A DNA stretch of 64,000 nucleotides, from the IMG/VR virus record IMGVR_UViG_2788500025_000001, positions 36,163 through 100,162 of that record; one strand, given 5' to 3'. Origin of the DNA: a virus. A program made the translations under genes and the position numbers. How positions within the stretch are numbered: position 1 is the stretch's first letter; each line of letters starts with the position of its first letter. The notes beneath the pieces were generated by a model. The model did not search any database and was not told the DNA's origin. It saw only the letters and a list, made by a program, of their open reading frames with translations. Below are positions 34,834 to 59,172 of this stretch, in pieces.

Positions 34834-34841
34834 GAGAGAAC

Positions 34842-35531: not shown

Positions 35532-35719
35532 TGCCTACGAACGTGGTCAAGACCCCCGAAGACGAACGCCTGTGGCAGAAAGCCAAGACCCGAGCGAAGG
35601 AGCAGGGTAAGGCCGACAACTACGGCTACATCATGGGCATCTACAAGCAGATGAACCCAGACCGCTTCAAGAAGTCTGCTCGACGGGTCGCGCAGCGGTA
35701 CGCCGCCAAGGCTGGGTGA
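35531..35719 (+). CDS. 62-aa protein (WQKAK..YGYIMGIYKQM; RRVAQRY)
   Basis: Stop/start overlap; RVA motif. Confidence 0.7.
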   Translation: MPTNVVKTPEDERLWQKAKTRAKEQGKADNYGYIMGIYKQMNPDRFKKSARRVAQRYAAKAG

Positions 35720-35722
35720 CCA

Positions 35723-37678: not shown

Positions 37679-37687
37679 CGTGCCTAT
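37673..37687 (+). promoter_or_regulatory. Late motif CGGTAG-N5-CTAT
   Basis: Exact match; its TAG is the TerL stop. Confidence 0.85.
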
Positions 37688-37712
37688 CCTTCCGGGCGGT
37701 TAGGAGACACAC

Positions 37713-38288: not shown

Positions 38289-38295
38289 GGTTCCT

Positions 38296-38604
38296 TTGTC
38301 CCGTCTGCGTGCCACATTGTCTCCCACCGAGACAGACCGAGAGATTCAACTGGCCCTTGACCGAGCGGCCCGTGAGATTGAGTCTGCGTTGCGCGTGGTT
38401 GCGGCTTCACCGCTGGATAGGTATCGCAAGCGCGGGACGGTGGGCGATCTCCAGGGAGCATTGGACCAGGTCACGCGGGTTCGATACCTTGCCCCACCTC
38501 GTCGCGAGCAGGAGTCCTATGAGGACTGGAAGGCTCGACAGGACAAGCGGGATCAAGAGCGCCGTGAGCGCCGTGCGTTGAGGGAGCAGGCCGATGTCGG
38601 ATAA
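38296..38604 (+). CDS. Hypothetical protein
   Basis: Lies between the decoration-like gene and the portal; start uncertain. Confidence 0.55.
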   Translation: MSRLRATLSPTETDREIQLALDRAAREIESALRVVAASPLDRYRKRGTVGDLQGALDQVTRVRYLAPPRREQESYEDWKARQDKRDQERRERRALREQADVG

Positions 38605-40297
38605 GAACGAAGGCAAGCCCGTCAGCAAGGTCCGTAACGGTGACGGGAAGAAGAAGGCGAAGACAGGCAAGCCCCGTAAGATCACGTCCAGCAGTATGCG
38701 GGCGAAGACCGCCAACTTTGGGTCCATCGGCAACGGTGGGTCCTCGGAAGGCATCGGCGGAAACTTCTACTCACCGGAGTTGTCCACCGACTTCCTGGAG
38801 TTGCCTCAGAGCCTCCACGAACAGTGGAACTACTACCGATTCTTCTACCGCACCGAACCATTCGTCGGCCAGGCCATCGATCTCCACACCGAGTTGCCGA
38901 TCAGCAAGGTCCGCATCGGCATGGCGAAGGCGAAGAGCCGCGACCTTGCGGTCAAGGCGACTCGATTCTGCGAGCGTTGGGCGCAGCGCATCAACCTCCT
39001 CGACCGGCTGCTGTGCATCACCCACGAACGCAACCTGATTGGGGTGGTGAACATCTGGTGCGAGGACGCCAACGAGGAGATGCCCCGCGACGTCCGGGAA
39101 GAAGAGGTCCGCATCCTCAAGGAGGACGGCGAGGCCATTGAGGAATGGCAACTCCGTGGGGACGCCGACGAACGCGCCGTGGCATGGCTGAAGAAGAACT
39201 ACAAGGGCTGGACCAGCGTGCGTGTGCTTCCGCCCGAGCAGATCAAGATGCAGTCGTTCAACTTCACGGACGAGCGCATCTTTGAGTTGATCCCGGACAG
39301 CAAGACGAAGGCCATCATCGAGAAGTACCAGGCCGGGGACAAGGACGCGAAGCGCATCGTGGAGTCCATGCCTCCTGCTGTGGTCAAGGCGGTCGTCGAG
39401 GGGTCCAACATCCCGCTCAACACTGACCCCATGGCCGGGTCATACATCTACTGCCTGGTGAACCGGAAGTCCGACTACGACCCGGAGGGTCGCTCCATCC
39501 TGGGTCGGTGCATGAGGATCCTGGTGTACCGGGACAAGTTGCGCCAGGCGCAGACAAGCATCGCCTCCCGGCACATGACACCGATCCGCATCGTCTACGG
39601 GGAAGACCTCGACATCGCGGACGTGGAAGCCTTGCGCGAGCAGGTGGACATGGCGTTGCAGGACCCTGACTACAGCATCATCGCCAACTTCCAGGTCAAC
39701 TGGGACGAGATGGGGGCCGACCAGCGGCTCCTGGACCTAAATGGCGAGTACGACCTCACCGACCGTCAGTTGTACGCTGGCCTCGGGGTCACCGAAGGTC
39801 TGCTCTCGGGCGAGTCCTCCTACAGCGGAGACAGGATCAACCTGGAGGTCATCAACACCCGGTACATGCTGCTGCGCGAGCAGTTGCAGGACTTCGTGGA
39901 GAATCACTTGTTTGAGCCGATGTGCCGCCGGATGGGCTTCATCGAGGAAGACGAGGACGGCGAGGAACGGGTCATCGTGCCTACGCTGTCGTTCACTCGA
40001 CTGGCTCTGCGGGACAACCGAGACACCTTCGACGCCCTGTACAACCTGTACCAGAAGGGCAGCCTGGACGTGGACACCATCCTTGAACTGCTCAACCTCG
40101 ACCCTGTTGCGGTGCGGGAGCGCATCGAGCGTGATCTCTTCACGGTCAATGACCCCACGTTCAACGAGGTCCTTCGGGGCATCTACGGTGACACGGGCCG
40201 GGCGATTGCCGAGAACTCCGATGCAGCCGAGAAGATTGCGAAGGTCCTGGGCCTCAAGTTTGAGAAGCCTGCCGAAGAGGGAGGGGGCCGCTTCTGA
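38594..40297 (+). CDS. Portal protein
   Basis: 567 aa, follows TerL; FFYRTEPFVGQAIDLHTELP, GRSILGR, KLRQAQ..IASRHMTP patterns. Confidence 0.8.
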   Translation: MSDKNEGKPVSKVRNGDGKKKAKTGKPRKITSSSMRAKTANFGSIGNGGSSEGIGGNFYSPELSTDFLELPQSLHEQWNYYRFFYRTEPFVGQAIDLHTELPISKVRIGMAKAKSRDLAVKATRFCERWAQRINLLDRLLCITHERNLIGVVNIWCEDANEEMPRDVREEEVRILKEDGEAIEEWQLRGDADERAVAWLKKNYKGWTSVRVLPPEQIKMQSFNFTDERIFELIPDSKTKAIIEKYQAGDKDAKRIVESMPPAVVKAVVEGSNIPLNTDPMAGSYIYCLVNRKSDYDPEGRSILGRCMRILVYRDKLRQAQTSIASRHMTPIRIVYGEDLDIADVEALREQVDMALQDPDYSIIANFQVNWDEMGADQRLLDLNGEYDLTDRQLYAGLGVTEGLLSGESSYSGDRINLEVINTRYMLLREQLQDFVENHLFEPMCRRMGFIEEDEDGEERVIVPTLSFTRLALRDNRDTFDALYNLYQKGSLDVDTILELLNLDPVAVRERIERDLFTVNDPTFNEVLRGIYGDTGRAIAENSDAAEKIAKVLGLKFEKPAEEGGGRF

Positions 40298-40300
40298 TCT

Positions 40301-40315
40301 CGGTAGCGTGCCTAT
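40301..40315 (+). promoter_or_regulatory. Late motif CGGTAG-N5-CTAT
   Basis: Exact match. Confidence 0.85.
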
Positions 40316-40342
40316 CCCCCCGACCCCTCCAAGGAGACCCCC

Positions 40343-40780
40343 ATGTTCAAGACAAGCACACTTCGCCGCATCCTTGCCTCCGAGGGCCTGCTCAAGACAG
40401 CATACGCCAACACCCTGTCCTACAAGGTGCAGTTGGGAAGTGATGCCGCGAACTACGGTGCGATCACGCGAAGTGAGGACGACCTACCCAACTACCGCGA
40501 CACTGCCATGCAGGTCGAGCGTCTTCTGCGGAAGGCAGTCCGCAACATTGAGGACATCACCTTCGAGCCCCGGAAGGGGCACTTCCGGGTGTACTTGACG
40601 TTCGATTCTGGGGCCGACGAGGAGAAGTCCTTGTACAAGGCCGAGGCCGATCTGGAGAGGGCCTTCAAGGGGATCGGCAAGGGGCACGACCATCACCGCT
40701 ACTTCCTCTACGGGAGCATCGACGGCGATTACTCCGACTTCAAGATCGAGGACGGTGAAGTCGAGTCCTGGTCTGATTGA
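40343..40780 (+). CDS. Leader-A small protein
   Basis: TLRRILASEGLLKTA; AAGGAG RBS. Confidence 0.75.
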   Translation: MFKTSTLRRILASEGLLKTAYANTLSYKVQLGSDAANYGAITRSEDDLPNYRDTAMQVERLLRKAVRNIEDITFEPRKGHFRVYLTFDSGADEEKSLYKAEADLERAFKGIGKGHDHHRYFLYGSIDGDYSDFKIEDGEVESWSD

Positions 40781-44042: not shown

Positions 44043-44968
44043 CCTTGCTTGCTTCGTCCCCATCACCGCTACGGGTGGCTTCTCTTTTCTCCGACCAGCA
44101 CGAGTTGGCGAGTCGGGTTGCTGCCAGGCACCAGGTTCGGCGGGTGGCTCGCCAGGCCGCTTCGGATCTGGGTTTGGCTACGACAACGAAAACTGCCGCC
44201 GTTGACGGACATAGCCCCTGTCGTGGGATCACGGCTGAGGCATTGTCAGCGTTTGCCGAGGCTTTCTGGCTGCCACAACAGAGTGGGATCAGACGAGCCT
44301 CACTCAGGGGGCTGGCCAAGCGGCTCAAGCAACTCGGCCAGTTGTTCAAGAAGGCCCCCCGCCTCTGGGAGCAGTTCAAACGCCTGGTGGGTGTAGAGTC
44401 CATGACCGACCTTCCTCGACGGCTCAAGGATCTGGCCGCACAAGGGAAGAAGACCCTGGCCCGTTTTCTCGGTAAGGCGTTCAACACCTTCCCTCTCCAG
44501 ATCTTCACCATCAAGGGGGCCAACCTCAACGCTTTCCTCGGTCAACTGACCCAGCAGGTCCCAGGGCTCGACAAGGCCCTGGCTCGTGTCCGGGCGGGGG
44601 CCGACGTGCTGGGTGACTGGCTCAGGAAGCACGCACCCCGCTTGTCGAAGGTGCTGATCGTCGCCACGTTCATCTTCATCTGGATGAACGTGGTCGAGTT
44701 TGAGTGGAACCTCTCGGACCTGGCCGACGCCCTGGTGGGGAACATCGGTTTCGGTGATCTCCTGGCAAGCCTGCCGGGCAGCGCACTCGGATTCCTGATG
44801 AACGGTCTGGGTCTGGGCACCTTTACCTTGCTTCCCGCTGCTCTCGTTGCCCGTGTTGTGTGGTTGATGCACAAGGGCTACGTCGTTTGGGACGGTCGTT
44901 GGTTCGATCTGAACCGGACGGCCCTCCTGCGTGACGGCTACGAGGTGGCTCCTGCTGGGGTTCGGTAG
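44039..44968 (+). CDS. Hypothetical membrane-associated protein with RVA leader
   Basis: LRVASLF..SRVAARH..KTA, then C-terminal hydrophobic helices. Confidence 0.7.
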   Translation: MTLLASSPSPLRVASLFSDQHELASRVAARHQVRRVARQAASDLGLATTTKTAAVDGHSPCRGITAEALSAFAEAFWLPQQSGIRRASLRGLAKRLKQLGQLFKKAPRLWEQFKRLVGVESMTDLPRRLKDLAAQGKKTLARFLGKAFNTFPLQIFTIKGANLNAFLGQLTQQVPGLDKALARVRAGADVLGDWLRKHAPRLSKVLIVATFIFIWMNVVEFEWNLSDLADALVGNIGFGDLLASLPGSALGFLMNGLGLGTFTLLPAALVARVVWLMHKGYVVWDGRWFDLNRTALLRDGYEVAPAGVR

Positions 44969-44977
44969 ACCGCCTAT
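44963..44977 (+). promoter_or_regulatory. Late motif CGGTAG-N5-CTAT
   Basis: Exact match; its TAG is the stop of ORF 44039. Confidence 0.85.
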
Positions 44978-45005: not shown

Positions 45006-45626
45006 ATGCGTCCTGATCCCACCCGCGTTGCTGCCCGATACGCTTCGCAGTCGAAGACTGCGGGCATGGTCCGTACTGCGGGCGAGGTTCGCTTCATCAA
45101 GGACCGTAGCGGTGACGCTGGGGAGTGGGCTTTCGGTCCTCCTGGTCCCAACGAGCGGGACATTGAGCAGGACTTCGTGTTCAACGCGAAGTACCTCAAG
45201 CCCCTGGCAGCCACTCTCCGGTCTGCCCTCATGGCTCTCGGTCACACAACCAGCGCCTACAACCGCTTCGTCAAGATCAAGAGCCGCAACGTGTCCCCGG
45301 ACGGGTCACTGGGCGGCAAGGGGTACATTCAGAAGATCCCTGACATGCGGAGGCAACTGATGAACTGTGTGGAAGCCCTCTCTGCCCTGACCGATACGGT
45401 CTACGACGAGATGAAGGCCCCGCACTGGAACCCCACCGAGGACACTCTCGACCCCCGCGACCGTGAAGAGGTCAAGGAGATCATCGAGGACGCGGAGGAG
45501 ATCAAGGACGATCCCGAAGCATGGGCGTCCGGCCAGGAAGAAGAAATGGACGCGGAGAACGAGGAGGCGATGGGCAAGACTGCCCGCCGCGTGATGTTCC
45601 GCTACGCGAACAGGAGGCTCGCATGA
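45006..45626 (+). CDS. Hypothetical virion protein (TRVAARY..SKTA leader)
   Basis: AGGAG RBS; leader motifs. Confidence 0.75.
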   Translation: MRPDPTRVAARYASQSKTAGMVRTAGEVRFIKDRSGDAGEWAFGPPGPNERDIEQDFVFNAKYLKPLAATLRSALMALGHTTSAYNRFVKIKSRNVSPDGSLGGKGYIQKIPDMRRQLMNCVEALSALTDTVYDEMKAPHWNPTEDTLDPRDREEVKEIIEDAEEIKDDPEAWASGQEEEMDAENEEAMGKTARRVMFRYANRRLA

Positions 45627-47797
45627 GCAACGACAAGAACGCTGAACTCGACATCCTCGCAGAAGCCTTCCTACCCTCCGACCTTTTGACCCCTTCGCTG
45701 GGGTCCAACTACGGCATGGATGGTTACCCCGACATGGAGTACAACATGGGTGTGCTCGATGCCGTGGTGAACCCCGAGTACCATGAAGCCCCCGCTCTCC
45801 CCTCAGGCATTCGCATGACTGCCGCTGCGGAGTTGGATGTTCAGGACATCCTGGATGGGCAACCCCTCGCTGACCTGGATTGGCTCGACCCGAGCCAGAT
45901 GCAGGATGAGGACCGTCTTCCTGAAAACCCTGTGGATCTCGGAATCCCAGAACTCATTGAGGCATGGGGTGTGAACCGCCGTACTGACGGCACACACCTC
46001 ACAGCGCACCATCGAGACCTCACCCGTGCTCGCTACGAGCAGTCCCTTGAGGGGCAGGGTGAATCGAAGCGCGTCAACGCTCGCACCATGGAAAAGGTGA
46101 TCACACACGCTATGCGCCGGTCCATTGAGGGACAGCACATTGACCGTGTGGTGCGCGAAGCCGCCGAGAGTCTGGGAACCGAGTTCAAGCGCATCGTCCC
46201 CCACCTCCGTGCCGTCAAGGCGGATCACGGACTCGCAGGGAACGTCTTCATCCGAGCCTCTGCCTACCCCGGATGGGGTGCAGGCAAAGGCAAGGTACAC
46301 GCGAAGAAGCACGCCAAGCAGGCCCGCTACCTCATTGTCTCCGAGCGGGACATGGAGCAGGCTACCTGGATTCAGAACGGTCGCTGCGCCTACACGGGCA
46401 AGGTGGCTGTGACCCAGGTTCCCTGGAAGCAGGCTCTTGCTTTCTATGCGCCTCGGCTGGAAGCCACAGGCCGGAAGGTTGCATCGGGTGATCCGAAAGC
46501 AGCACTCCGGGCAGCCTTCCTGACCAACCAAGTCCAGCGTGTCGCCCACGGTGAGCATCTCCCTGTCTACAAGGCAGCGGGCGATGATCTCACTGCTGCG
46601 GAGGCACGCCTCGCCGTGGACCAGGCCGACACCACCCGCAAGGTGGTCGAGGTCACGGAAGCCCACGTCCGGCAGCGCCTTGCTGCCTGGCGTCAGGCCC
46701 ACATGCTCGACGACATGCAAGTGCGATCCATCATCGACAGCGCGGCCTCACCCAACGACAAGTTGGCCGCAGCGGTCGAGATGGTCACAGCAACCCGACA
46801 CGGCTCCTTCACCGGGGCCGTGAACCGTGGGGAGGATGCGGCGCAGGAGCGCCAAGAACGCACCCTCGCTGCGAAGCGGGAACGTCGCCAGGCCCACAGC
46901 GAGCGGTTGGCTGCTCTTTCCGAGCAGCGCCGTCAGGAAGACATCAAGGCCCGTGTGGCTACGGTGATCAAGCACATCGAGCGTGGTGCTCGTGGTTCAT
47001 ACCTGCGGAAGATCATCGCGAAGACGATCCCACAGGAGTACGCCGCCACCGCCACCTCGATGCTGCTGCCCACCCTCAAGAAGACGGGCGCTCTCCGCGA
47101 CTCCGTGGCAAAGGTCGCCTCCTACGACGGGCCGACCTTTGAGGCCGCCCAGCCAGAACGCGAGTCGGTCACGCTGACTGCCCACGAGAAGTCTCTCGTC
47201 AAGGCGGCGTCGGCTGGGGACACCAGTGTTGGGGTCATCCGAAACACCCTCCAGACCATCCGCAGGGCGATGTCCGAAGGTATGGCTGGCAAGGACTTGT
47301 CCGGGTTCATCAACCTGCGGTTTACCGAGCGGGTCCTGACTGCCTCCTCAGACCTCATCGCTGAGGTCCGGGGCCGCCATGAAGGGGCTTCCGGTCACCT
47401 GTATGTCGATGCCGAAGCATACGCCTCCCCCACGGGATCAGGCGGTTGCGAAAAGGCGGCGTCGAAGCACCGCGCCAATCAGGTCCCCTCGGTGGCTGCG
47501 ATGCCCCGATGTGGCTCCTGCACAAAGGCGCGTGCTCTGGAAGACGGCACCATGAAGTGTGGCGTCTACAACAAGGCACTCCTGGAGGACACCACAGGAG
47601 CCGAGATCGACCAGATCCGGGCAGCCAACATCAAGGGCGCGGACATGAACGATGCTGAGGTCACGGCTTCGATGTTCGCACCGACCTACGACCCCTCAGA
47701 GTTCAACCTTCACAACGCGAACCTGGAAGGCATCAGCACACCCCTCCCTGAGACCGAGAAGTTGTCTGAGATTCTGTTCGGTGGTTGGTCGCTGTAA
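45623..47797 (+). CDS. Large hypothetical virion protein with Cys-rich C-terminal region
   Basis: ATGA overlap; C..CGSC..CGVY; KAA sites. Confidence 0.7.
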   Translation: MSNDKNAELDILAEAFLPSDLLTPSLGSNYGMDGYPDMEYNMGVLDAVVNPEYHEAPALPSGIRMTAAAELDVQDILDGQPLADLDWLDPSQMQDEDRLPENPVDLGIPELIEAWGVNRRTDGTHLTAHHRDLTRARYEQSLEGQGESKRVNARTMEKVITHAMRRSIEGQHIDRVVREAAESLGTEFKRIVPHLRAVKADHGLAGNVFIRASAYPGWGAGKGKVHAKKHAKQARYLIVSERDMEQATWIQNGRCAYTGKVAVTQVPWKQALAFYAPRLEATGRKVASGDPKAALRAAFLTNQVQRVAHGEHLPVYKAAGDDLTAAEARLAVDQADTTRKVVEVTEAHVRQRLAAWRQAHMLDDMQVRSIIDSAASPNDKLAAAVEMVTATRHGSFTGAVNRGEDAAQERQERTLAAKRERRQAHSERLAALSEQRRQEDIKARVATVIKHIERGARGSYLRKIIAKTIPQEYAATATSMLLPTLKKTGALRDSVAKVASYDGPTFEAAQPERESVTLTAHEKSLVKAASAGDTSVGVIRNTLQTIRRAMSEGMAGKDLSGFINLRFTERVLTASSDLIAEVRGRHEGASGHLYVDAEAYASPTGSGGCEKAASKHRANQVPSVAAMPRCGSCTKARALEDGTMKCGVYNKALLEDTTGAEIDQIRAANIKGADMNDAEVTASMFAPTYDPSEFNLHNANLEGISTPLPETEKLSEILFGGWSL

Positions 47798-47807
47798 GGA
47801 GGGTGCT

Positions 47808-49175
47808 ATGGCTCTTTCCAGGGCATCAGTCCATAGGGTAGCCCGCCGCAAGCAGGCTGAGATGGAAACGGAGGGGGCCAAGGCACTGATGAAGTGGTTG
47901 GCTCGCCACGTCCGTGGGGCGAAGCATATCTATGTCGTGGGCGGCGCGGTTCGGAACTACAAGATCGACCAGCCCGTCAAGGACATCGACATGGTGGTGG
48001 ACTCGCTCAATCTGGGCAAGGACGCCGCCTGGGTAGCGGAACACATCGCTCACAAGATCCCTGCTCAGACGAGGATCGAAGGGCCTGACAACCTCCGGGT
48101 CACCAAAGTCCACATCAAGAGCCCCTGGAGCATCGACGGCTACGAGATGGAGGGTGAAACCCTCGACATCGTTGACGCTCGCACAGAGGAGTACGCCAGG
48201 GACCCGGAGACAGGGGACTACGTCGGCCACAAGCCGATCCGGGTGGACCCCACCACAATGGAAGACGACGTGACTCGACGGGAGTTCACGTTCAACACTC
48301 TGATGTGGCGACTCAGCGAACTCGCCAACGGCCCGGACAAGGCCGAGATCATCGACATCACCGGCTGCGGGGTCAAGGATCTGGAGAACCGTGAGATGCG
48401 GTGCCCAGGGGATCCCGACGAGGTGTTCGCGATTGACCCCACCCGCATCATCCGCATCATCAAGTTTGCCTTCAAGTACGGCTTCAAGTTGCCCCCCGAC
48501 GTGAAGGCGGCAGCGAAGCGCCAGGTGAAGGGGCTCAAGCGCATCCCGACGAAGGCGTTTGAGGCGATCAGGAAGATCGCGTTGGACAACCCGGACTACA
48601 AGAAGGCCATCGGTGTCATGGAAGACCTCGGCGTGATCGACGTCATGGCCGAGATGATGGAGTCCGATAAGCAGTTTCGGTCGTCCATGACCAACTACGC
48701 CGAGAAGCGGGGCATCGCCTACCTGTTTTACATGATGGACAAGGGCCTGCCGGTCGGGGCCTCGTTGAAGTTCCTGGACCGAGCGCAGCAGCAACGGTTT
48801 CGGGAGATCACCGCTCCCATGGACCGTGACGAGGCGTTGGACTTCCGTGCGGCTGTGAGCAATCCCGGCAACGTCTACGACAAGAAGTTCATCCCCACCC
48901 TCGCCGCGACCCTCGGTTTCAGCAAGAAGCAGATGCGGGACCTCATGCAGGTGGTCCTTCCGATTGGCCGAGAGGCCCTGTTGCGTGACCCCAGCCTCAA
49001 GGACAAGCCATCGGCGTTGATGCGCCAGGTCGAGCAGGCCGCAAAGCGAGCCATCCCTACTCGGGTAGCCATGCGCTGGGCTGCGACCGGTAAGGAATCC
49101 AGGCTCCAACGCATCCAGATGAAGCGGGAAGCCTCGGCACGTCTCCGTGCTGCGTGGCGGGGCGAAGATGGCTGA
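47808..49175 (+). CDS. Class II tRNA nucleotidyltransferase / poly(A) polymerase family enzyme
   Basis: YVVGGAVRN..KDIDMV, DARTE, RREFTFNTL, DPTRIIRIIKF. Confidence 0.88.
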   Translation: MALSRASVHRVARRKQAEMETEGAKALMKWLARHVRGAKHIYVVGGAVRNYKIDQPVKDIDMVVDSLNLGKDAAWVAEHIAHKIPAQTRIEGPDNLRVTKVHIKSPWSIDGYEMEGETLDIVDARTEEYARDPETGDYVGHKPIRVDPTTMEDDVTRREFTFNTLMWRLSELANGPDKAEIIDITGCGVKDLENREMRCPGDPDEVFAIDPTRIIRIIKFAFKYGFKLPPDVKAAAKRQVKGLKRIPTKAFEAIRKIALDNPDYKKAIGVMEDLGVIDVMAEMMESDKQFRSSMTNYAEKRGIAYLFYMMDKGLPVGASLKFLDRAQQQRFREITAPMDRDEALDFRAAVSNPGNVYDKKFIPTLAATLGFSKKQMRDLMQVVLPIGREALLRDPSLKDKPSALMRQVEQAAKRAIPTRVAMRWAATGKESRLQRIQMKREASARLRAAWRGEDG

Positions 49176-52100
49176 CCCGAAGCGCATCGCAGCCCTCCAC
49201 AAGCAGGGGGGCATCTACAAGCCTATGTCGGAGATCACTCCCGGCACTCAGGACTTGCTCGACTCGCCGACCCCAGCGTGGCTGGATCGCGACTACCCCT
49301 ACGTCGCACCCCCAGGAGAAGACCACACACTCCAGGAACTCGACTACCTGGTCTCGCTGATCCCCCTACGGGAGAAATGGGCCTCGTTCATCAAGGCAGC
49401 CGACGAGGACATGACCCCTCTGTTCGTCACGCTGTGTTCCGAGTTGGGCGCACCGTGCGATGTGGACGCCCTCAATGAGATGGCCTCCGAAGCGTCCATC
49501 CTGATCACGAAGTTGAAGTGGCTCTACAACAGGCCGCGCCCCTACCAGGTCGCCGCCAAGCATCTACGCCTGTCGGGTCAAGGAGGAGTCTTCAAGAAGG
49601 GGGACTTCTCGGTCATGGGCACCACGAGTGCCCACTCCCCGGCGTACCCGAGCGGCCACACCATTCAGGCTCACCTGATGGCCTCACGGTTGAGCGAGAC
49701 CTCTCCACAGCACCGTAGGGCGTTCATGGATCTCGCCGAGAAGGTGTCCTTCTCCCGAGCCGTTGCGGGCTACCACTGGCCGAGTGATCTCGCGTTCGGA
49801 CAGGACATCTTCCGCCACATCGTCATGCCCCTGATGCCCTCGGCTGTCCGTGTTGCCAAGACCTTCACGGTGAACAAAGGCGACCTGGTTTGGTATGGCA
49901 AGTACAAGAACCAGCGCGGCAAGGTCAAGAACTTCGGCATGAGCGACAAGGGTGATCCCACGGTCACCGTCGAGCAACTACCGAGCCCGTCCGCCCGGAA
50001 GCCGAAGAAGAAGTCTCCGAAGACCATGAACCTGTTCAAGATCCGCCCTCGCAAGAAGGACGAGCACGACGAGGCTGCGGACAAGACTGCTGGTGGATCA
50101 CGGACGCTCTACCACGTCGGCAAGCGCCCAGCGCAGCCTCAACCAAAGCGTGCCGAGTGGCGTCAGCGGGGACAACCGGAGCCTGACTGGGTGCGCCCAT
50201 GGCTCGATGCACCTGTGTCGAAGGGTGTCTTCCTGACCCCCAACCCGTTCCTGGTTGCTCCAAAGCACGGTGTGTTCGGTCACGTCTATGCCTACCAGGT
50301 GCCCAACTGGGTCATCAAGCAGGCCAAGGGCATCAACCGCAAGGATGGGGTCAGCGAGGTCTTGATCCCCGAGCCGTTGTGGGAGCATGTGAAGTTCAAG
50401 GGCAAGTCCATGGACCGAGAGGACTTCCTGAACCAGGTTTACAGGAGCGAGGACGCCGCCTTCACCGGATCACGGGCGAACAAGTACCGCACCAAGTCGG
50501 ACTGGGAGGCGCTTCGCAGCACCAGGCTGGCCGCATCGAAGGCTCTCTCCAAGAAGAAGGTCCCGAAGGCAGACGGGTCGGGCACCACGACCGTCTACGA
50601 GTACGGCCCGCGCCAGGTGGCTCAGAGAAATAAGGAGAAGGCTGTTCGCATCGAAACCCTCCGCAAGAAGATGGGGGACCTGCGCAAGAAGGCACAGAGT
50701 GACCTCACTGCAAGTGATCCTGAGACCAGGCTTGCGGCCCTGGCTGTGTGCTTGATGGACGAGACTTATGCACGGGTAGGAAACGAGAAGTCCGCCGAGG
50801 AGGGCCATCATGGGGTCACCAACTGGTTGGCCGACCATGTGACCCTGGGGGACAAGGCAGCGACCATCCGCTACACCGGCAAGTCCGGGGTCAAGCAGGA
50901 GAAGAAGATCACCAACTCCCGTGTCCTTGCGGCGCTCCGAAAGGCCCTGGAAGGCAAGGGCAAGGGCGACAAGGTGCTTTGTGACGGGGACGAGTGCTCG
51001 GTCCTGGCGAAGGACGTGAACGCCTACCTCAAGCCTTTCAGCATCACCGCGAAGGACATCAGAGGTCTACATGCCAACGAGGAAATGAAACGTCACCTCA
51101 GGGACCAACGCAAGGCTGGCCCGGACCTCCCTCGCTCCAGGAAGGAGAAGGACAAGATATTGAAGGCTGAGTTCAAGGCCGCGCTGGAACTCGCTTCCGA
51201 TGCCGTGGGGCACAAGGACTCCACGCTACGCAGTCAATACCTGGTCCCCAGCATGGAAGAAGCCTACGTCCACGACGGCACCGTGTTGGACCGCCTCGAC
51301 AAGAAGGCCACCCTTTCCGACTCCGAGAAGGAGGAGCGAGAGGCCGAGCGCCTGGTCCGCCAGTCTCCGAAGTTGAAGCCGCCCCGCCGCGACAAGGAGC
51401 GAGGCAGGATCAAAGACACTGATCCCGACACCGACCCAGACGAGAAGCAGGATCGGAAGGACCGGTCGAACAACTACAAGGATGCCGCAGTGGCGAAGGC
51501 CATGCGGAAGTACCTGGCCCTGACCGCAGGTACAGCGAGGTCGAAACGCCGCCGGAAGAGGCAACCATCATCCCGTGAAGTCGCTCGCCGGAAGCAGCAG
51601 TCCGACACTGCGAAAGGGTCGAAGCCTAAGGCCCCACCGAAACTCAAGGAGGCCCCCGCACCGGGCAGCGGGCGTAAGAAGCCGAATGTTGGGGATACCT
51701 GGAAACCCGAGGGTAGTGACAAGTGGTCCGCAAAGAGCAAGGATGGCACTGAGTCAGGCTTTGCTTCCCAGGAGGCCGCGAAGGCGTGGTTGACTGGAGG
51801 GCCTGGGCCTGGTGCGTCCGGTGACACTGCTACTGATTCCTCCCCCGCTGCCGACACGGCCCCGAAGCCTCCTGACAAGAAGCCTTCCGCAAAAGGGCGG
51901 CTGACTCGTAAGCAGAAGCGCGAGATGGTGGACGCCCTCGTTGCAGATCTGGCGAAGGGTGCAGCAGCCGTCCTGAGCAACCTCCCGGAAGACCTCCTCA
52001 AGGAAGTCGGGGACGCCCTCGGTGAACCCGCACGGGCCGTCGTGGACGCCCTGTTGGGTATTGGTACGGAGGCTCTTCAGGAACGGGCGACCTTCGCCAG

Positions 52101-53325
52101 AGCCACGTTGAAGCGTGTACCCACCAGCAAACGCCCGACCGCCGAGCAGGTTGCCGCTGCTGAGACCCTTGTGGAGGAGGATGAGGACGGCCTGGAGTCC
52201 CTACAAGATCAGTTGGATGATCTGGAGGGATCTGCTCCTGACAGTTCCAGTGAGGATTCCAAGGCACACAAGGCCAAGGTCACGGCCCTCAAGGCGAAGA
52301 TCAAGAAGATCGTAGCCGCCGAAAAGACCATCCAGGCCGCTGAGGAGTGGGCCAACGCACCCTCTCCCGCAGAAATCGCAGAGTCTCTCGTGGCTCTCAG
52401 GTCAGTCGAGGTCCGCAACGACCCTCTCTTGCTGGACCTTTCTAACCCCATCACCAATCTCTCCACGGACCCCCTGAACCTGGAGGGTGGTCCTCAAAAG
52501 CAGTTCATGGGCGAGATGGGCGACCTCACGGTGTCAACCGCCTCCGAGTACCGGGCGTTGTCCAAGAAGGACCGTGACTCACACAGGCAAGGGTTGGCCG
52601 ACCACATGCAGGCGTTGGAGGACAAGGGTCAGACTGACACGAAGCAGTACCATCACACCCTCGCTCAGATGCGGGGCCTCCAGATGGCATCCGCACTGGA
52701 AGATGGTGACGATGCCACTGGAGTCTCAGCGGAGTTTCAGACCTTCCTCAAGGCCGCCCAGTCTCAAGGCGCAGAGGTGCTGGACAAGTTCATCAAACTC
52801 AATGTCACCGGAGCCGCCGAAGGGGACGTAGATGCCCAACAGCAGTTTCGGGATGTCCTTCGCGGAGTACCTCCTGCGGAACTCAGGACGATGGTCCCCC
52901 AAGACAACCCGGCAGCCGAAACCCTCGACATGATCACGGGGGCGCACCTCACAGGCAAGAGGAAGGAACTGTGGTTGGGCAGCATGGACGATGAGACCCG
53001 ACAGTTGCTCCAGGAGCACGCCGAGGACATGATCATGGATGAGATCATGTTCACGGACATGGATCTCGTCCGGGCCGGGAAGTCGGTGGGCCAGCAGAAG
53101 AAGAAAAGCGGCAAGCAGAAGAAGCAGACCGCCGAGCGGGCAACGCGGAGAGGCAGGAGGCACAAGTCCGTCCTCGATGAACTACGCAAGAAGTGGGCGA
53201 AGATGCGTAACCAAACCCTCCACTCTCTTTCTTCGGCCCTCTTCGGCACACCCCCATCCACAGCAAAGACCTCTGACCTCAACGCCCTCCAGGCGTATGA
53301 CTTTCACCCCTGGGGGACCCTTTGA
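49168..53325 (+). CDS. Polyprotein: PAP2 phosphatase + SH3/KOW-like + ART-like + topoisomerase IB + unknown C-terminal domain
   Basis: KWLYNRPRP/PSGH/SRAVAGYHWPSD; LYH..GVFLT..EVLIP; RVGNE, GKSGV, KDIR, GH, SQYL. Confidence 0.88.
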   Translation: MADPKRIAALHKQGGIYKPMSEITPGTQDLLDSPTPAWLDRDYPYVAPPGEDHTLQELDYLVSLIPLREKWASFIKAADEDMTPLFVTLCSELGAPCDVDALNEMASEASILITKLKWLYNRPRPYQVAAKHLRLSGQGGVFKKGDFSVMGTTSAHSPAYPSGHTIQAHLMASRLSETSPQHRRAFMDLAEKVSFSRAVAGYHWPSDLAFGQDIFRHIVMPLMPSAVRVAKTFTVNKGDLVWYGKYKNQRGKVKNFGMSDKGDPTVTVEQLPSPSARKPKKKSPKTMNLFKIRPRKKDEHDEAADKTAGGSRTLYHVGKRPAQPQPKRAEWRQRGQPEPDWVRPWLDAPVSKGVFLTPNPFLVAPKHGVFGHVYAYQVPNWVIKQAKGINRKDGVSEVLIPEPLWEHVKFKGKSMDREDFLNQVYRSEDAAFTGSRANKYRTKSDWEALRSTRLAASKALSKKKVPKADGSGTTTVYEYGPRQVAQRNKEKAVRIETLRKKMGDLRKKAQSDLTASDPETRLAALAVCLMDETYARVGNEKSAEEGHHGVTNWLADHVTLGDKAATIRYTGKSGVKQEKKITNSRVLAALRKALEGKGKGDKVLCDGDECSVLAKDVNAYLKPFSITAKDIRGLHANEEMKRHLRDQRKAGPDLPRSRKEKDKILKAEFKAALELASDAVGHKDSTLRSQYLVPSMEEAYVHDGTVLDRLDKKATLSDSEKEEREAERLVRQSPKLKPPRRDKERGRIKDTDPDTDPDEKQDRKDRSNNYKDAAVAKAMRKYLALTAGTARSKRRRKRQPSSREVARRKQQSDTAKGSKPKAPPKLKEAPAPGSGRKKPNVGDTWKPEGSDKWSAKSKDGTESGFASQEAAKAWLTGGPGPGASGDTATDSSPAADTAPKPPDKKPSAKGRLTRKQKREMVDALVADLAKGAAAVLSNLPEDLLKEVGDALGEPARAVVDALLGIGTEALQERATFARATLKRVPTSKRPTAEQVAAAETLVEEDEDGLESLQDQLDDLEGSAPDSSSEDSKAHKAKVTALKAKIKKIVAAEKTIQAAEEWANAPSPAEIAESLVALRSVEVRNDPLLLDLSNPITNLSTDPLNLEGGPQKQFMGEMGDLTVSTASEYRALSKKDRDSHRQGLADHMQALEDKGQTDTKQYHHTLAQMRGLQMASALEDGDDATGVSAEFQTFLKAAQSQGAEVLDKFIKLNVTGAAEGDVDAQQQFRDVLRGVPPAELRTMVPQDNPAAETLDMITGAHLTGKRKELWLGSMDDETRQLLQEHAEDMIMDEIMFTDMDLVRAGKSVGQQKKKSGKQKKQTAERATRRGRRHKSVLDELRKKWAKMRNQTLHSLSSALFGTPPSTAKTSDLNALQAYDFHPWGTL

Positions 53326-53348: not shown

Positions 53349-53363
53349 CGGTAGGGTTTCTAT
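53349..53363 (+). promoter_or_regulatory. Late motif CGGTAG-N5-CTAT
   Basis: Exact match; heads the capsid assembly cluster. Confidence 0.85.
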
Positions 53364-53875: not shown

Positions 53876-54451
53876 GTGCGTCGGTTTGCCGAAAACTACG
53901 TCAACTACCAAGAGCGGGCCACCGAGTTTTCTGTCGGAGACGTCGTGGTGCCGTTTGGCCTGTGGGATTCCCAGAGCGGTCGTGTCACGGCTGTGTGGCC
54001 TGCTATTGGTATGGTGGATGTAGAGTTCCCATCCGGCAACGCACGCTTCCCCGTCGAGGAACTTCAGCGCATGGGCGCTGATGGGCAGGCCGAACCGCCC
54101 AGAACGGACTCCGCTCCGGGCGGGGGTGGGTCTGTTTCTGTGCCGGGTGGTCCGTACCCAGACAAGAAGAAGGCAGCCAATCGTGTGGCGCGGGCGTTCG
54201 TCAAGCAGTCCCTTTACTGGGCGCAGAAGGACCGCCAGTACCGCATGACAGGACCAGAGAGCGTGGAGGGGAAACCCAACTGCCCAAAGTGTCCTGAGAT
54301 CCCTCTCCAGAAGGCGATCTACAAACGCCGCGACGGATCCAGCGAACGGCTCCAGGGCTGCCCTGGTTGCATGTTCCTCATCAAGGACGCGGACATTGTG
54401 AACTTCGGCCCTGTTAGTGCCGAGGAGATTGAGATCGAGGGGCAGGGCTGA
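53876..54451 (+). CDS. SH3-like plus Zn-ribbon head-associated protein
   Basis: VGDVV..GRVTAV..VDVEF; KKAANRVARAF; CPKC..CPGC. Confidence 0.7.
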   Translation: MRRFAENYVNYQERATEFSVGDVVVPFGLWDSQSGRVTAVWPAIGMVDVEFPSGNARFPVEELQRMGADGQAEPPRTDSAPGGGGSVSVPGGPYPDKKKAANRVARAFVKQSLYWAQKDRQYRMTGPESVEGKPNCPKCPEIPLQKAIYKRRDGSSERLQGCPGCMFLIKDADIVNFGPVSAEEIEIEGQG

Positions 54452-55890
54452 TGGCTTTCCTCAAACGTGCCAATGCTATGGTCGTCCATCCCCGCATCTC
54501 TGGACGCGGTTGGGGTGGGATCCGCAAAACGGCTTCGGCAGGGTCCTCCCGGAACCTGACTGACCAGGCGCGGGAAATCCTCGGAGGATCGCTGTCGTCC
54601 GACGACTACCTGGTCACGCACTGCACCATCGTGGCGTCTGTAGACACCGACAAGGCCCCCAACGTGAAGTTGGGCAACGTCAAGGTCGGCACCCAGACGG
54701 TCAACAGACAGTGGGACGACTACCTGATCAAGCCCTCGTCCTCCCAGTTTGTGAACAACAACGGCGACTCGTGGAGCCGCCCGGTGCTGAGGATGGCGTA
54801 CCCGACCTTTATTGGGGCGCACAACTTCCGTGAGCACGTCCAGATCGAGGACCAGTCGAAGGGCCGGATCATCGACGCCTGTGCTCGTGACATTGGTGAC
54901 TCCCTCTATGTGGACATCCTGGTTGCCACGAACAAGAAGCACGCGGCGCTCGTCCAGGACATCCAGTCAGGCAAGATGGCGACCCTCTCCATGGGTTGCA
55001 CAACTGACTTCACGACTTGCTCTAAGTGCGGTCACTTCGCTGTGGACGAGACCCAGTTGTGTGATCACATCAAGTACGCGAAACTCAACACCTTCATGGA
55101 CGATTCCGGCCAGAAGCGTGTGATCGCAGAACTCTGTGGACACCAGTCCTACGACGAGAACCCGGACGCCCCTGGTGGGGTCAGGTTCATCGAGGCTTCC
55201 TGGGTCGCGGTTCCTGCGTTCCCCGGTGCCGTGATGCGGAACATCCTTGATCCCAGCGCGGCGTCCGACGACCAGGTTCGCAAAGTGCTCGCCTCCCCTC
55301 CCCCTCAGTGGTCAGACCACGCGGTCGCAAAGGCCGCGTCCATGTCGGCCCTTGCCTTCGACTTCGGTGGTGGCGGGGATGATGAGGACGACGCCCCTGC
55401 AAAGGACGAGAAGCCATCGCCCCCGTTTCAGGGGATCGAAGATGCGGTGTACGAAGCCCTCAAGGTCCGAGTCAGGGAGCGCCTGGAGCGCGATCTCGCC
55501 CAGAAGGCTGTTGAGGATTCTGAGCCGGAACCTGATGGCACAATGGAGCCGAACGACTCCATCATCAAGGAAGGTCGAGCACACTCGACTTCAGTCAAAG
55601 CACTTGTTCGTGTAGCCTCCTCCGAGGTCGCTCTTGTAGACGGTATTGCTTCCGTTGACGCCGCGCATGGTGTCAAGGTTGCACGCCACCTCTACAGAGT
55701 CGCCCTGGCGGCGGGGGTTCCCACCGAACACCCTTCTCTTGACCGTTACCTGTTTGCCTGTAAGAAGGCGGCGGGACGGGATCTGAGTACTGCCGAAATC
55801 CGGGTTGTTGTCCGGGTCGGCACCCTGTTGGCCCAATGGGCTGACAATAACAACCCCAAACCCCACTATCCTATGAGGAGACTGCCATGA
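54451..55890 (+). CDS. Prohead (capsid maturation) protease, putative
   Basis: Lies before scaffold and MCP; HNFREH, LSMGC..CSKCG, FIEASWVAVPA. Confidence 0.7.
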   Translation: MAFLKRANAMVVHPRISGRGWGGIRKTASAGSSRNLTDQAREILGGSLSSDDYLVTHCTIVASVDTDKAPNVKLGNVKVGTQTVNRQWDDYLIKPSSSQFVNNNGDSWSRPVLRMAYPTFIGAHNFREHVQIEDQSKGRIIDACARDIGDSLYVDILVATNKKHAALVQDIQSGKMATLSMGCTTDFTTCSKCGHFAVDETQLCDHIKYAKLNTFMDDSGQKRVIAELCGHQSYDENPDAPGGVRFIEASWVAVPAFPGAVMRNILDPSAASDDQVRKVLASPPPQWSDHAVAKAASMSALAFDFGGGGDDEDDAPAKDEKPSPPFQGIEDAVYEALKVRVRERLERDLAQKAVEDSEPEPDGTMEPNDSIIKEGRAHSTSVKALVRVASSEVALVDGIASVDAAHGVKVARHLYRVALAAGVPTEHPSLDRYLFACKKAAGRDLSTAEIRVVVRVGTLLAQWADNNNPKPHYPMRRLP

Positions 55891-57407
55891 GCCGTCAACG
55901 AATGACTTGGACAGACGCTGGGGTGTCTCGGCACGCCTCCGAGCACCCTGCAACCCCCGACGAGGGACCCGCTTCCCCCGCCCACAAGGCCCAGCCCGGC
56001 CCCGACGCCTACAAGAGTGGAGACACTTCTTCCTGGGCTGAGGACGTGCATCCTGGCCCCTACGCGAACGGTGAGCATCCTGCCACCCCCGACGAGGGAC
56101 CTGCCAGCCCTGCCTACAAGGCTGCCGCCCTGGAACGCAAGGCTGCAAAGTGCATCCGTCTCGCTACCGCCATGCTCGGTGAGGGTGCTACCGTCGCCGC
56201 CATCGAGAACCAGGCCCTGGAACTGATGGACCTTCCTGACCGTTCGATCAAGGCCAGCCTCTCCCGGCTCGCTGAGGACGCCGACGAAGCCATCGACGAT
56301 GACGACGCCGCCGAAGCCGAGGCCGATCTCGCTGAGGAAGGCAAGAAGAAGGCTTCTGTCTCCGACCGCATCGCTCGTCTGGAGCGCGTGCTCATCAAGT
56401 TGGCTGAATCCGAAGACCCTGAAGGTGACGGCGACGACTCCGAGTCCGAAGACCCCGAGGGTGACGACGACGACGACGGCAGCGAAGACCCCGGCGAAGA
56501 CGAGGACATGAAGAAGTCCGCGTCCGACGACGAGGACGACGAGGACGACGACGAGTCCATGCAGAAGAAGTCGGCCCTTGAGCGCCGCATGGACCGCATC
56601 GAGCGCGTCCTGCATCGCCTGGCTGCTGGCAAGAAGGACGACGGTGAGTCGAAGGGCGACCAGTCCAAGACCCACATCGACTATGCCGACGCGAAGGACG
56701 GCGACAAGGAGACTGGCCACGGCGAGTCTGCTGGCGATCAGTCCAAGTCCCACGAGGACTACGAAGGCAAGAAGGCTTCCGACCACGACGACGACGAGTC
56801 CATGGATGACGAAGAGTCGAAGAAGAAGGCTGGCTGGGAGCCGGGTCACCGTGCTGAAGGTGGCTGGGACCCCGGTCACATGGAGTCCATGAGCGACGAG
56901 GAGTCCATGCTGGAAGAGATGATGCTGGAAGAGATGCTTGCCGAGGAGAGCATGGATCAGAATGATCCCGAGGCTTTCTACGGTGATGATCCTTCCGGTG
57001 ATGGTGTTCCTGAGGTCATCGAGGCCGAAGGCGTCGTTGAGTCCATGATGGACCCCATGGGTCTGGACGACGAGATCGTGGAGGAGGATGACATGATGAT
57101 CCTCGCTTCCCTTTTCGGCAAGGAAGCCGACCTCAAGGATGAGGACAAGAAGGAGAAGGAAGACCACGACAAGGGTGCCATCGCCGACGACAAGGACCAC
57201 ATCGAGAAGTTGGAGAAGGACGAAGACGAGGACGCTGAGGATCTGGAGAAGGAGGAGTCGAAGAAGAAGGCTTCCCTCCGTCCCCAGCCGAAGCGTGCCA
57301 GCAAGGGTGCAAAGACCCTCGGTGGTGTGTCGAAGGAAGCGGCTTCTGAGGTCGGTGATCTCAGCAAGTTGTGGGACTCGGCTCCTGACGTGTCTCGCTT
57401 CTTCTAA
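55887..57407 (+). CDS. Capsid scaffold/core protein
   Basis: Extremely acidic, low complexity; many KKA/KSA/KEA sites; EHPATPDEGPASPA x2, EDP(E/G) x3. Confidence 0.75.
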   Translation: MSRQRMTWTDAGVSRHASEHPATPDEGPASPAHKAQPGPDAYKSGDTSSWAEDVHPGPYANGEHPATPDEGPASPAYKAAALERKAAKCIRLATAMLGEGATVAAIENQALELMDLPDRSIKASLSRLAEDADEAIDDDDAAEAEADLAEEGKKKASVSDRIARLERVLIKLAESEDPEGDGDDSESEDPEGDDDDDGSEDPGEDEDMKKSASDDEDDEDDDESMQKKSALERRMDRIERVLHRLAAGKKDDGESKGDQSKTHIDYADAKDGDKETGHGESAGDQSKSHEDYEGKKASDHDDDESMDDEESKKKAGWEPGHRAEGGWDPGHMESMSDEESMLEEMMLEEMLAEESMDQNDPEAFYGDDPSGDGVPEVIEAEGVVESMMDPMGLDDEIVEEDDMMILASLFGKEADLKDEDKKEKEDHDKGAIADDKDHIEKLEKDEDEDAEDLEKEESKKKASLRPQPKRASKGAKTLGGVSKEAASEVGDLSKLWDSAPDVSRFF

Positions 57408-58299: not shown

Positions 58300-59172
58300 A
58301 TGTCTGTGAACAACAGCGTAAAGGCGAAGTTGATCAGCGAGTACATCGGCACTGCTGCCGGTCGTGCGAAGTTGGCTGCTTCAATGACTCAACCCCTGCG
58401 ACTCCGTCGCGATTACATGGCCGTAGGCCGAAAGACATTTCTCGTCGAACAGTTGCCTGATGGGGCACTTCCGATTTACGACAAGGATGCGGACGTCACC
58501 GCTTACGTCGTTGGTGAAGAAGGTGAGAACATCATCGCCGTCACCAAGCCTCGTCGTGTGATCTTCCCGCTCTTTGAGATCGCGTCGAACCCCGAGATCC
58601 CGCTCACGCAGATCAAGGAACGTCGTTTCGACCTCATCGAGCGTGCCCAGGACCTGGCTCGTGCCCAGATCCAGGCTGCGGAAGACGAGCGTGTCTTCGC
58701 CGTCCTCGATGCCATCGCCACCAACGGCTTCGACAGCGTGGGAGCCGTCAACGCGGACATCCCCGTCGTCGCTCCCCTCAGTGGTGATGTCCTGGCCGAC
58801 GCATTCAGCCTGATCGAACGTCATGACCTGCGAGTTGCTCGCGTGTTCATGAACGCTCGTGACTACGCTGACCTGCGTAAGTTCGGACGCGACATCCTGG
58901 ACATCGAGACCCAGCGTGACCTGCTCAAGACTGGTCTGATGGCTACCCTTTGGGGCGCTCAGATCATCGTCAGCCGCCTGGTCCCTGTCGGAACCGTCTA
59001 CGTCTGCTGCGAGCCCGAGATGTTTGGCCGGATGCCTGTCCGCACCGAACTGACCGTCCTCAGCGCCGACGATCCGAAGGCCCGCACCATCGGCTTCTCG
59101 TGCTTTGAGAACCTGGGTATCGGCGCGTTCAACCCTCGCGGTCTGGCCCGTCTGACCATCACTCGTCCGTAG
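58300..59172 (+). CDS. Major capsid protein (HK97-fold, inferred)
   Basis: LAASMTQPLRLRRDYMAVGRKTFLVEQLPDGALPIYDKD; follows scaffold; strong RBS; followed by a terminator. Confidence 0.85.
   Translation: MSVNNSVKAKLISEYIGTAAGRAKLAASMTQPLRLRRDYMAVGRKTFLVEQLPDGALPIYDKDADVTAYVVGEEGENIIAVTKPRRVIFPLFEIASNPEIPLTQIKERRFDLIERAQDLARAQIQAAEDERVFAVLDAIATNGFDSVGAVNADIPVVAPLSGDVLADAFSLIERHDLRVARVFMNARDYADLRKFGRDILDIETQRDLLKTGLMATLWGAQIIVSRLVPVGTVYVCCEPEMFGRMPVRTELTVLSADDPKARTIGFSCFENLGIGAFNPRGLARLTITRP

Follow-up and report, generated by a model that had tools for sequence, protein, structure and literature searches.

The window analyzed here, a 64,000-nucleotide (nt) stretch of the viral record IMGVR_UViG_2788500025_000001 in IMG/VR (positions 36,163 to 100,162), contains on its + strand an uninterrupted open reading frame (ORF) that begins at 49147 (GTG) or 49168 (ATG), ends at 53325, and stays open for 1385 codons. 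Homologs share the start at the ATG at 49168 (MADPKRIAAL...), and the product of 49168..53325 is therefore a polyprotein of 1385 amino acids (aa) plus stop; the continuous frame and the homologs with the same start bear out the ORF proposed in an initial annotation of this DNA. With module borders set at BLAST break points against 58 homologs, this polyprotein comprises five independently evolving modules in one frame, viz., a PAP2 phosphatase-like domain, a small β module, an ADP-ribosyltransferase (ART)-fold domain, a type IB topoisomerase (topo IB), and a C-terminal region. The window is part of a 141-kb viral contig with a completeness of ~31%, and these two figures therefore imply a phage genome of ~450 kb. 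No paralogs of the polyprotein modules were found elsewhere in the 141-kb record, and the full protein is absent from the cultured phages in a collection of 50,697 records.

The N-terminal module A (aa 1-230; 49168..49857, + strand), which bears a KRIA|A element at its N-terminus, matches the Pfam PAP2 family (PF01569) over aa 109-211 (E = 7e-11; 42.4 bits against a cut-off of 27.2). The three PAP2 motifs earlier noticed at ~49510-49790 are all present, namely K115-x6-R122-P123 (nt 49510-49536; aa 115-123), P161-S-G-H164 (nt 49648-49659; aa 161-164), and S196-R-x5-H203-x3-D207 (nt 49753-49788; aa 196-207). Its best sequence matches in the PDB are soluble class A non-specific acid phosphatases (E = 6e-11), not membrane lipid phosphatases, and going by these signatures module A is a soluble PAP2/class A acid-phosphatase-like domain with a predicted phosphatase activity, for which nucleotides, nucleic-acid 3' ends, and lipids are candidate substrates. 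It has all three signature motifs in common with the class A non-specific acid phosphatases of the PhoN/PhoC type; however, those are secreted, periplasmic enzymes, whereas the domain in the window forms part of a polyprotein of the cytoplasm or the virion and shows no export signal recognizable by eye. The succeeding module B (aa 231-308; 49858..50091, + strand) is a small, basic, weakly KOW-like putative β module that ends in a DKTA junction (nt 50080-50091). The initial annotation had read an SH3/KOW-like segment at ~49860-49990: a conserved module of ~75 aa indeed exists here, being found in 21 homologs and in several of them at the N-terminus, but the KOW affinity is weak, with Pfam KOW matched weakly in four of the 21 (best E = 0.006) and the copy in the window unmatched. 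A feature search of the Atlas with module B retrieved only unnamed viral clusters (<0.85) and no named neighbor.

Module C (aa 309-454; 50092..50529, + strand) opens with GGSRTLYH directly after DKTA and belongs to a family of 187 representative clusters recovered in an exhaustive HMMER search, most of them small phage-like proteins and some giant multidomain ones. An AlphaFold2 model built from a 56-sequence alignment has a mean predicted local distance difference test score (pLDDT) of 88.9, and an exhaustive structure search with VIA-align, which is independent of Foldseek, matched it to the RES toxin (Z 5.9), ParT (5.8), TreTu (5.5), and diphtheria toxin (5.2), followed by PARPs, DarT, and MbcT; nearly all the top matches have the ART fold, and these Z values are middling and speak to the level of the fold only. 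The Foldseek lists for the PDB, AFDB, and Atlas give the same families, including ART-PolyVal, DUF3990, and Tpt1. The conserved elements of the module are LYH316 on β1, GVF355LT on β2, and xE397VLIP on β5; E397 and F355 are invariant and, together with LYH, lie by strand position on the strands where ARTs bear E, Y, and H. However, H316 is replaced by Tyr in some close homologs, and Phe stands at the usual Tyr position. No named ART family (PARP, ART-PolyVal, RES, DarT, Tpt1, and others) was matched by Pfam at E up to 1 anywhere in the whole protein, and module C therefore represents an uncurated, divergent family. On these grounds we accept an ART-like fold for it, and the ART-like domain first suspected from sequence inspection is thus real and widespread, with an extent of ~115 aa.

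Module D (aa 455-714; 50530..51309, + strand), which starts with RLAASKAL (RVAAKY in relatives) and ends with LDRLDKKA (nt 51298-51309), is a minimal topo IB: it matches Pfam Topoisom_I (PF01028) over aa 486-686 (E = 3.8e-20; 72.7 bits against a cut-off of 23.7) and the Deinococcus radiodurans TopIB structure PDB 2f4q (E = 4.9e-11). R536, K572, R632, H682, and Y691 (nt 50773-51240) align column by column with R137, K174, R239, N280, and Y289 of 2f4q, the catalytic residues of that enzyme, and are conserved across more than 50 homologs; all five residues of the R-K-R-H-Y pentad that had been claimed at ~50560-51290 are thus in place. Judged by this alignment, module D is a type IB topoisomerase with a complete catalytic pentad and a predicted relaxation activity. 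It shares a homologous catalytic domain and the full pentad with the poxvirus-type and bacterial enzymes (vaccinia Top1 and D. radiodurans TopIB), and its His-Tyr spacing of nine residues is like that of vaccinia Top1. However, those enzymes have an N-terminal domain of ~80 residues, whereas only ~30 residues precede the conserved YEYGP strand in module D, whose alignment to 2f4q begins at residue 76 of the latter; the usual N-terminal domain therefore appears to be strongly reduced. Moreover, unlike in vaccinia and Deinococcus, the domain is embedded in a polyprotein and flanked by RVAAKY-like and DK-x-A elements. Poxvirus topo IB is carried in the virion and aids early transcription. The literature on phages and huge phages, as far as it was searched, holds nothing relevant on topo IB and describes no location of it in a phage head module.

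The region beyond module D, which had been described as one helical domain of ~550 aa, is better divided into three parts. The first, segment E (aa 715-785; 51310..51522, + strand), is a conserved, charged stretch of ~70 aa delimited by BLAST break points (e.g., against P0047, P0030, and P0036, our handles for homologs); it travels with the C-terminal part, and relatives insert up to ~600 aa between topo IB and it. The second, segment F (aa 786-1062; 51523..52353, + strand), comprises ~280 aa of poorly conserved, low-complexity sequence rich in K/R and D/E, as marked out by the BLAST coverage profile and composition. The third, domain G (aa 1063-1385; 52354..53322, + strand), is a conserved all-α domain of 323 aa with 42 homologs, which occur only at the C-terminus of these topo IB proteins. 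An AlphaFold2 model of aa 1040-1385 is all-α, with a pLDDT of 80.4 and a core above 90; searches of the PDB (with Foldseek), AFDB clusters, BFVD, and Atlas gave no fold match for domain G, and no stand-alone homolog of 190-605 aa was found. Domain G and the 115-aa ART-fold domain (187 clusters) add two families without a curated description.

A fusion of this kind might be an artefact of assembly or of a frameshift joining neighboring genes, and the occurrence of the same modules as separate, overlapping genes in some relatives would suit such an origin: the relatives L002 and L007 encode PAP2 in proteins of 1065 and 923 aa, respectively, whose genes overlap the adjacent topo IB gene, and they answer the earlier suggestion that separately encoded homologs be sought. 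We nevertheless reject this explanation, to which we assign practically no probability: the frame is continuous over 1385 codons, a near-identical protein lies on a separate 257-kb contig, and PAP2 and topo IB are fused in 22 independent protein clusters at 43-90% identity, drawn from ENA, JGI, and Logan assemblies of differing samples and pipelines, on contigs of up to 257 kb. The check for an assembly artefact that accompanied the initial annotation thus comes out in favor of a genuine fusion. The representative of one cluster at 90% identity, P0002, differs from the protein in the window by few residues and comes from the 257-kb contig, i.e., a longer assembly of a near-identical phage exists.

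The constant parts of these proteins are topo IB and, mostly, the E-F-G tail, with the N-terminal enzymes varying among relatives and PAP2 being replaced by HAD, 2H, or CapA-type phosphoesterases. Thus, LR745208.1 (L004), a published 485-kb phage whose major capsid protein (MCP) is 86% identical to that of the window, encodes a minimal 508-aa protein with HAD_SAK_1 and topo IB lacking domain G; P0078 (3196 aa) combines 2H, HAD_SAK_1, topo IB, and module C; P0039 joins PGA_cap (CapA-type) to topo IB; and further partners of topo IB or module C are Ham1 with HAD_SAK_1 (P0043), GGACT (P0053), and ChaC (P0058). Module C follows topo IB instead of preceding it in P0008, and in P0170, which has no topo IB match, a LigD 3'-phosphoesterase occurs with an ART-like module C. 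The start codon region of the polyprotein gene overlaps by 8 nt (ATGGCTGA) the stop of an upstream gene for an enzyme of the CCA-adding/poly(A) polymerase family (47652..49175, + strand; Pfam PolyA_pol, E = 5e-14; PHROG tRNA nucleotidyltransferase), and in P0023, P0034, P0038, P0047-49, and P0054 this enzyme and the topo IB polyprotein share a single frame, with P0023 uniting PolyA_pol, DUF5661, PAP2, and topo IB. In L002, the counterpart of the CCA-adding gene additionally bears DUF5661 and HAD_SAK_1, and the 1065-aa PAP2 protein (6814-10011 of L002) also has a PARP-like segment (WWHGTS...GGIYFSS), module C, and a C-terminal Ntn-hydrolase (AAT-like) domain.

The initial annotation saw no obvious pathway shared by these activities, which is probably too strong given that topo IB is recurrently joined to PAP2, HAD_SAK_1, 2H, PGA_cap, and the CCA-adding enzyme. 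This recurrence of non-homologous phosphoesterases and a CCA-adding enzyme, and the LigD 3'-phosphoesterase found with an ART-like module, point to nucleic-acid 3'-end healing as a common theme of the topo IB partners. From here one might arrive at a rather unlikely alternative to a packaged protein, namely a cytoplasmic 'Swiss-army-knife' nucleic-acid repair enzyme that is neither cleaved nor packaged and in which the K-x-A motifs at the module borders, discussed below, are merely linkers: the phosphoesterase would heal the 3' end, the CCA-adding enzyme would rebuild tRNA ends, and topo IB would join or cleave via 3'-phosphate/5'-OH chemistry. At ribonucleotides, enzymes of the topo IB class leave ends with a 2',3'-cyclic phosphate. 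Topo IB also recurs with domains named for RNA repair (HAD_SAK_1, 2_5_RNA_ligase2 [2H], and PolyA_pol), and the swap of one phosphoesterase for another suggests coupling to topo IB and not random cargo; to these may be added the LigD fusion of P0170 and the RNA-repair kits, including CCA-adding enzymes, that jumbo phages carry (PMC7824862). However, the ITPase, GGACT/ChaC, PARP-like, and Ntn-hydrolase partners fit no single repair pathway, and the 141-kb fragment yielded no RNA ligase (PF09414), RtcB, polynucleotide kinase, or tRNA, an absence of little weight at 31% completeness. The relatives that fuse topo IB with HAD_SAK_1, 2H, and CCA-adding domains recall the 'Swiss Army Knife' RNA-repair proteins from which HAD_SAK_1 takes its name; in contrast to those proteins and to the jumbo-phage kits, the polyprotein of the window has PAP2 in place of HAD and lacks a ligase or kinase module, and an overview of jumbo-phage RNA repair does not mention topo IB (PMC7824862).

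What such a repair enzyme would leave unexplained is the setting of the gene, along with its conserved non-enzymatic C-terminal region. All genes of the region lie on the + strand, in the order terminase large subunit (35723..37678; phrog_2, E = 4e-20), portal protein (38594..40297; phrog_16240, E = 5e-33), several genes without assignment, the CCA-adding gene, and the polyprotein gene, followed by two small genes, a prohead (head maturation) protease (54451..55890; phrog_18299, E = 9e-13; Atlas neighbors Peptidase_S77/S78/S80), an acidic scaffold-like protein (55887..57407), a 203-aa gene, and the MCP (58300..59172; phrog_2522, E = 2e-54; Pfam Phage_capsid). The protease shares 41% identity with the protein annotated as head maturation protease in Tunturiibacter phage Tunturi_5, and a sequence search of the PDB at E up to 10 found no match for it. 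In the window and in all seven relatives examined, the topo IB gene stands immediately upstream of this head block, whose order is the same and whose gene sizes are similar in L002, L004, L006, L007, L008, and the P0023 contig; in L008, the immediate neighbors of the polyprotein gene are, on one side, a 567-aa gene of portal size (portal by position) and, on the other, the head block. A promoter-like motif, CGGTAG-N5-CTAT (44963..44977, + strand), opens the transcription unit of which the polyprotein gene is the last member, and the next copy of the motif (53349-53363, + strand) lies just past the polyprotein stop codon. Thirteen exact copies of this motif occur between 14176 and 53363 of the window, all on the + strand and at gene starts, against 0.03 expected by shuffling, and it is likely, from this distribution, a phage-specific middle or late promoter. 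This late-type promoter motif, like the head-block position, is a further feature that the repair enzyme described above does not account for.

The same position might instead suggest a prohead-core or packaging accessory, in which topo IB, acting within the filling head or at its portal, would remove torsional stress while the terminase packages a very long genome and the C-terminal region would anchor the protein to the core, with the other modules as passengers. The gene lies between the portal gene and the core, protease, and scaffold genes; topo IB and domain G are constant, with the N-terminal enzymes varying; and the genome, at ~450 kb by the completeness estimate, is large. However, we know of no phage that needs a topoisomerase for packaging, the protein of LR745208.1 lacks domain G altogether, and the steady phosphoesterase and nucleotidyltransferase partners remain without explanation, and we hold such a role to be quite improbable.

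Evidence on whether the polyprotein is cut comes from short motifs at the module borders. The three linkers named in the initial annotation are found where it placed them, viz., RVAKT at aa 228-232, DKTA at aa 305-308, and DKKA at aa 711-714. There are four K[KST]A motifs in the polyprotein, two of which coincide exactly with module borders that had been set independently, namely DKTA|GG (305-308) and DKKA|T (711-714). In 36 of 37 homologs, K-x-A stands 18-19 residues after the catalytic-Tyr motif and is followed by at least eight unrelated sequences; likewise, [KR]-x-A-G-G precedes module C in ~30 of 100 diverse proteins, including the short N-terminal leaders of stand-alone versions. The same motif marks the scaffold-like protein at 55887-57407, which has six K[KST]A (KKKA|S, KKSA|S, KKSA|L, GKKA|S, KKKA|G, and KKKA|S) against 1.0 expected, a count attained in none of 1000 shuffles. 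Across six divergent scaffold-like homologs encoded beside the prohead protease (window, L002, L004, L006, L007, and L008), the motif occurs 4-6 times per protein against 0.5-1.6 expected, i.e., it is 4-10 times over-represented, and at most 3 of 1000 shuffles attain the observed count; in these proteins the N-terminal part and the tail (...DLSKLW(E/D)SAPDVS.FF) are conserved, and the centers are not alignable and always bear (S/G/E)KK(K)A(S/G/A) motifs. Late proteins of the window contain 37 K[KST]A against 17 expected, often near their N-termini (portal, protease, and several proteins without assignment). Further, an Ntn-hydrolase domain, of a family that needs a free N-terminal Cys, starts directly after SKTA|C in L002 and after PRTA|C in P0051 (residue 23). 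Prohead proteases of this class share the assemblin fold, and herpesvirus assemblin cuts at Ala|Ser, to which K/R-x-A is nearer than to the L/I-x-E site of T4. Taken together, these patterns make K/R-x-A a strong candidate for the site at which the prohead protease cuts, and an uncleaved repair enzyme leaves the sharing of this motif between polyprotein and scaffold unexplained.

The RVAKT linker makes a weaker case for cleavage, with RVA(A/K) being integral to modules B and D even in stand-alone proteins; the RVA element may instead be a docking or targeting element. Counts from crude gene calls on the 141-kb record (RVAxR[YWFH], 3 against 0.58 expected; R[VI]A, 45 against 30 ± 5) are too weak to use. 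Among neighboring proteins, the upstream 758-aa protein (45521-47797) is rich in K-x-A (13 against 4.8 expected), and a 1317-aa gene of L002 (2868-6821 of that locus), which lies between its CCA-adding and PAP2 genes and has no Pfam hit, bears three (W/G)KKKA(S/G) motifs; judging from these motifs, both may be further processed head cargo. Many small late proteins at 21325-40780 of the window open with an (L/I)R.ILA.EGL(L/V) leader followed nearby by K/R-x-A (SDKQA, QKKVA, LKTA), which fits a removable targeting peptide.

In light of the above, we propose that this gene of a huge soil phage encodes a polyvalent polyprotein associated with the head, which would be cut by the prohead protease and ejected with the DNA, a reading for which we judge the case to be evenly balanced. 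The polyprotein would be made together with the head proteins and incorporated into the prohead, where the prohead serine protease would cut after the Ala of K/R-x-A at the module borders, most confidently after A308 (DKTA|GG) and A714 (DKKA|T), with A230 and A454 as further possible positions. Once released, the enzymes would exit the capsid with the DNA: topo IB might relax or re-seal the incoming ~450-kb genome, as is the case with the poxvirus virion topoisomerase, the phosphatase might heal 3'-phosphate or 2',3'-cyclic-phosphate ends of DNA or RNA, and the ART-fold module might use NAD+ to modify a host or nucleic-acid target, with the upstream CCA-adding enzyme being potentially part of the same toolkit. 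That topo IB is so persistently accompanied by non-homologous phosphoesterases and a CCA-adding enzyme suggests such healing of 3'-phosphate or cyclic-phosphate ends, and 3'-end healing is a theme of phage counter-defense against nucleases (PMC7824862). The cleavable multi-cargo cassette envisaged in the initial annotation is thereby supported, if indirectly, by the shuffling, splitting, and fusing of modules exactly at the named linkers, the K-x-A of 36/37 homologs, the [KR]-x-A-G-G before module C, the scaffold motifs, and the head-block position, with its RVAKT site being less convincing. A repair function and capsid delivery are compatible, and both may hold. We also entertain, tentatively, a more specific version, in which, much as in eukaryotic viruses, a string of enzymes would be translated as one polyprotein during head assembly and cut in trans by the prohead protease (assemblin fold) at the same K/R-x-A sites at which the scaffold would be taken apart; this toolkit for the first minute of infection would have a fixed topo IB core and an obligatory but interchangeable 3'-end-healing phosphoesterase (PAP2, HAD, 2H, or CapA-type); if true, it would imply an undescribed job for topo IB, i.e., repairing or re-sealing 3'-phosphate/5'-OH breaks made in phage or host nucleic acids by host defenses.

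Several observations weigh against cleavage and ejection. The remaining two K[KST]A motifs of the polyprotein fall within the folded topo domain, and K-x-A over the whole polyprotein is not enriched (14 observed against 15.3 expected). The DK-x-A after topo IB could belong to a conserved C-terminal helix, and KK-x-A in the scaffolds could be a binding patch and not a cleavage site; similarly, the RVA element is built into the N-terminal end of modules B and D, even when a protein begins at that point (MPRRPSSRRVAAKY...), and need not be a site. The two Ntn-hydrolase examples are mutually homologous, and members of this family are capable of self-processing. Neither Pfam nor PHROGs revealed in the polyprotein an in-cis peptidase (metallopeptidase or Hint), a MuF, or a portal fusion, features that are common, if not strictly defining, in polyvalent proteins. 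In addition, the polyprotein matches no PHROG family, and the syntenic slot of Tunturi_5 holds an unrelated protein annotated as 'DNA ejection protein' (gp328), to which hhalign found no match of domain G (probability 0.06%).

The closest analogs are the polyvalent proteins of phages and conjugative elements, which likewise join unrelated enzymes (ART folds, 2H, phosphoesterases) in one very large protein, are encoded among the late or virion genes of portal-terminase phages, as is the gene in the window, and are predicted to travel in the virion, enter the host along with the DNA, and be split into units (Iyer, Burroughs, Anand, de Souza, Aravind 2017; PMC5512222). The protein in the window unites two or more unrelated enzymatic domains of effector type in a single chain, its relatives vary in architecture, and we class it as a new, topo IB-centered variant of phage polyvalent or ejected proteins. 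It differs from those described, which usually have their own metallopeptidase or Hint domain, or MuF or portal fusions, in lacking detectable versions of these, and processing would therefore take place in trans by the prohead protease at K-x-A; its conserved C-terminal all-α domain also has no known counterpart. In the account of polyvalent proteins, topoisomerase appears only in the reference list and PAP2 nowhere (PMC5512222). A second parallel is offered by Alt and the internal proteins of T4, enzymes including an ART that enter the prohead, are trimmed there by the prohead protease at a short motif, and leave with the DNA on ejection (PMC5512222), as proposed here. The T4 order of portal, core proteins, protease, scaffold, and capsid genes is also that of the window. 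T4 cargo has a capsid-targeting sequence and is processed by gp21. However, each T4 cargo protein comes from a small gene of its own and has a single N-terminal targeting peptide that is cut at L/I-x-E, whereas the phage of the window strings the modules in one frame with K/R-x-A as the candidate site. Phage CCA-adding enzymes and 3'-end-healing phosphoesterases are, for their part, recognized counter-defense tools (PMC7824862).

If the proposed packaging and cleavage are true, module D would be the first type IB topoisomerase built into a phage head, in parallel to the poxvirus virion topoisomerase, and the system would clearly illustrate, for tailed phages, an enzyme polyprotein that is processed in trans and to which new cargo could be added by inserting a module between K-x-A sites. 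It offers a testable cleavage specificity for an uncharacterized lineage of prohead proteases, and the swapping of phosphoesterases beside topo IB suggests a functional pairing not known from the cellular biology of topo IB. It might also shed light on the preparations that ~450-kb phages make for the onset of infection in Acidobacteriota-like hosts of soil. The nearest cultured relative, Tunturi_5 (L005; PP885688.1), is a 309-kb phage of an Acidobacteriota host from Arctic tundra soil, with an MCP 50% identical to that of the window; that the closest cultured head-module relative infects a tundra acidobacterium suggests a soil Acidobacteriota-like host for the phage of the window (GC content of the window, 61%). 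Elsewhere in the window, a 1721-aa protein (26486-31651) ends in a tail-sheath C-terminal domain, and a 1242-aa protein (2541-6269) combines an H-type lectin domain with a weak OmpA-like end. In LR745208.1, an IS605 OrfB/TnpB (Cas12f-like) gene (3985-5286 of that locus) adjoins a terminase-like gene.

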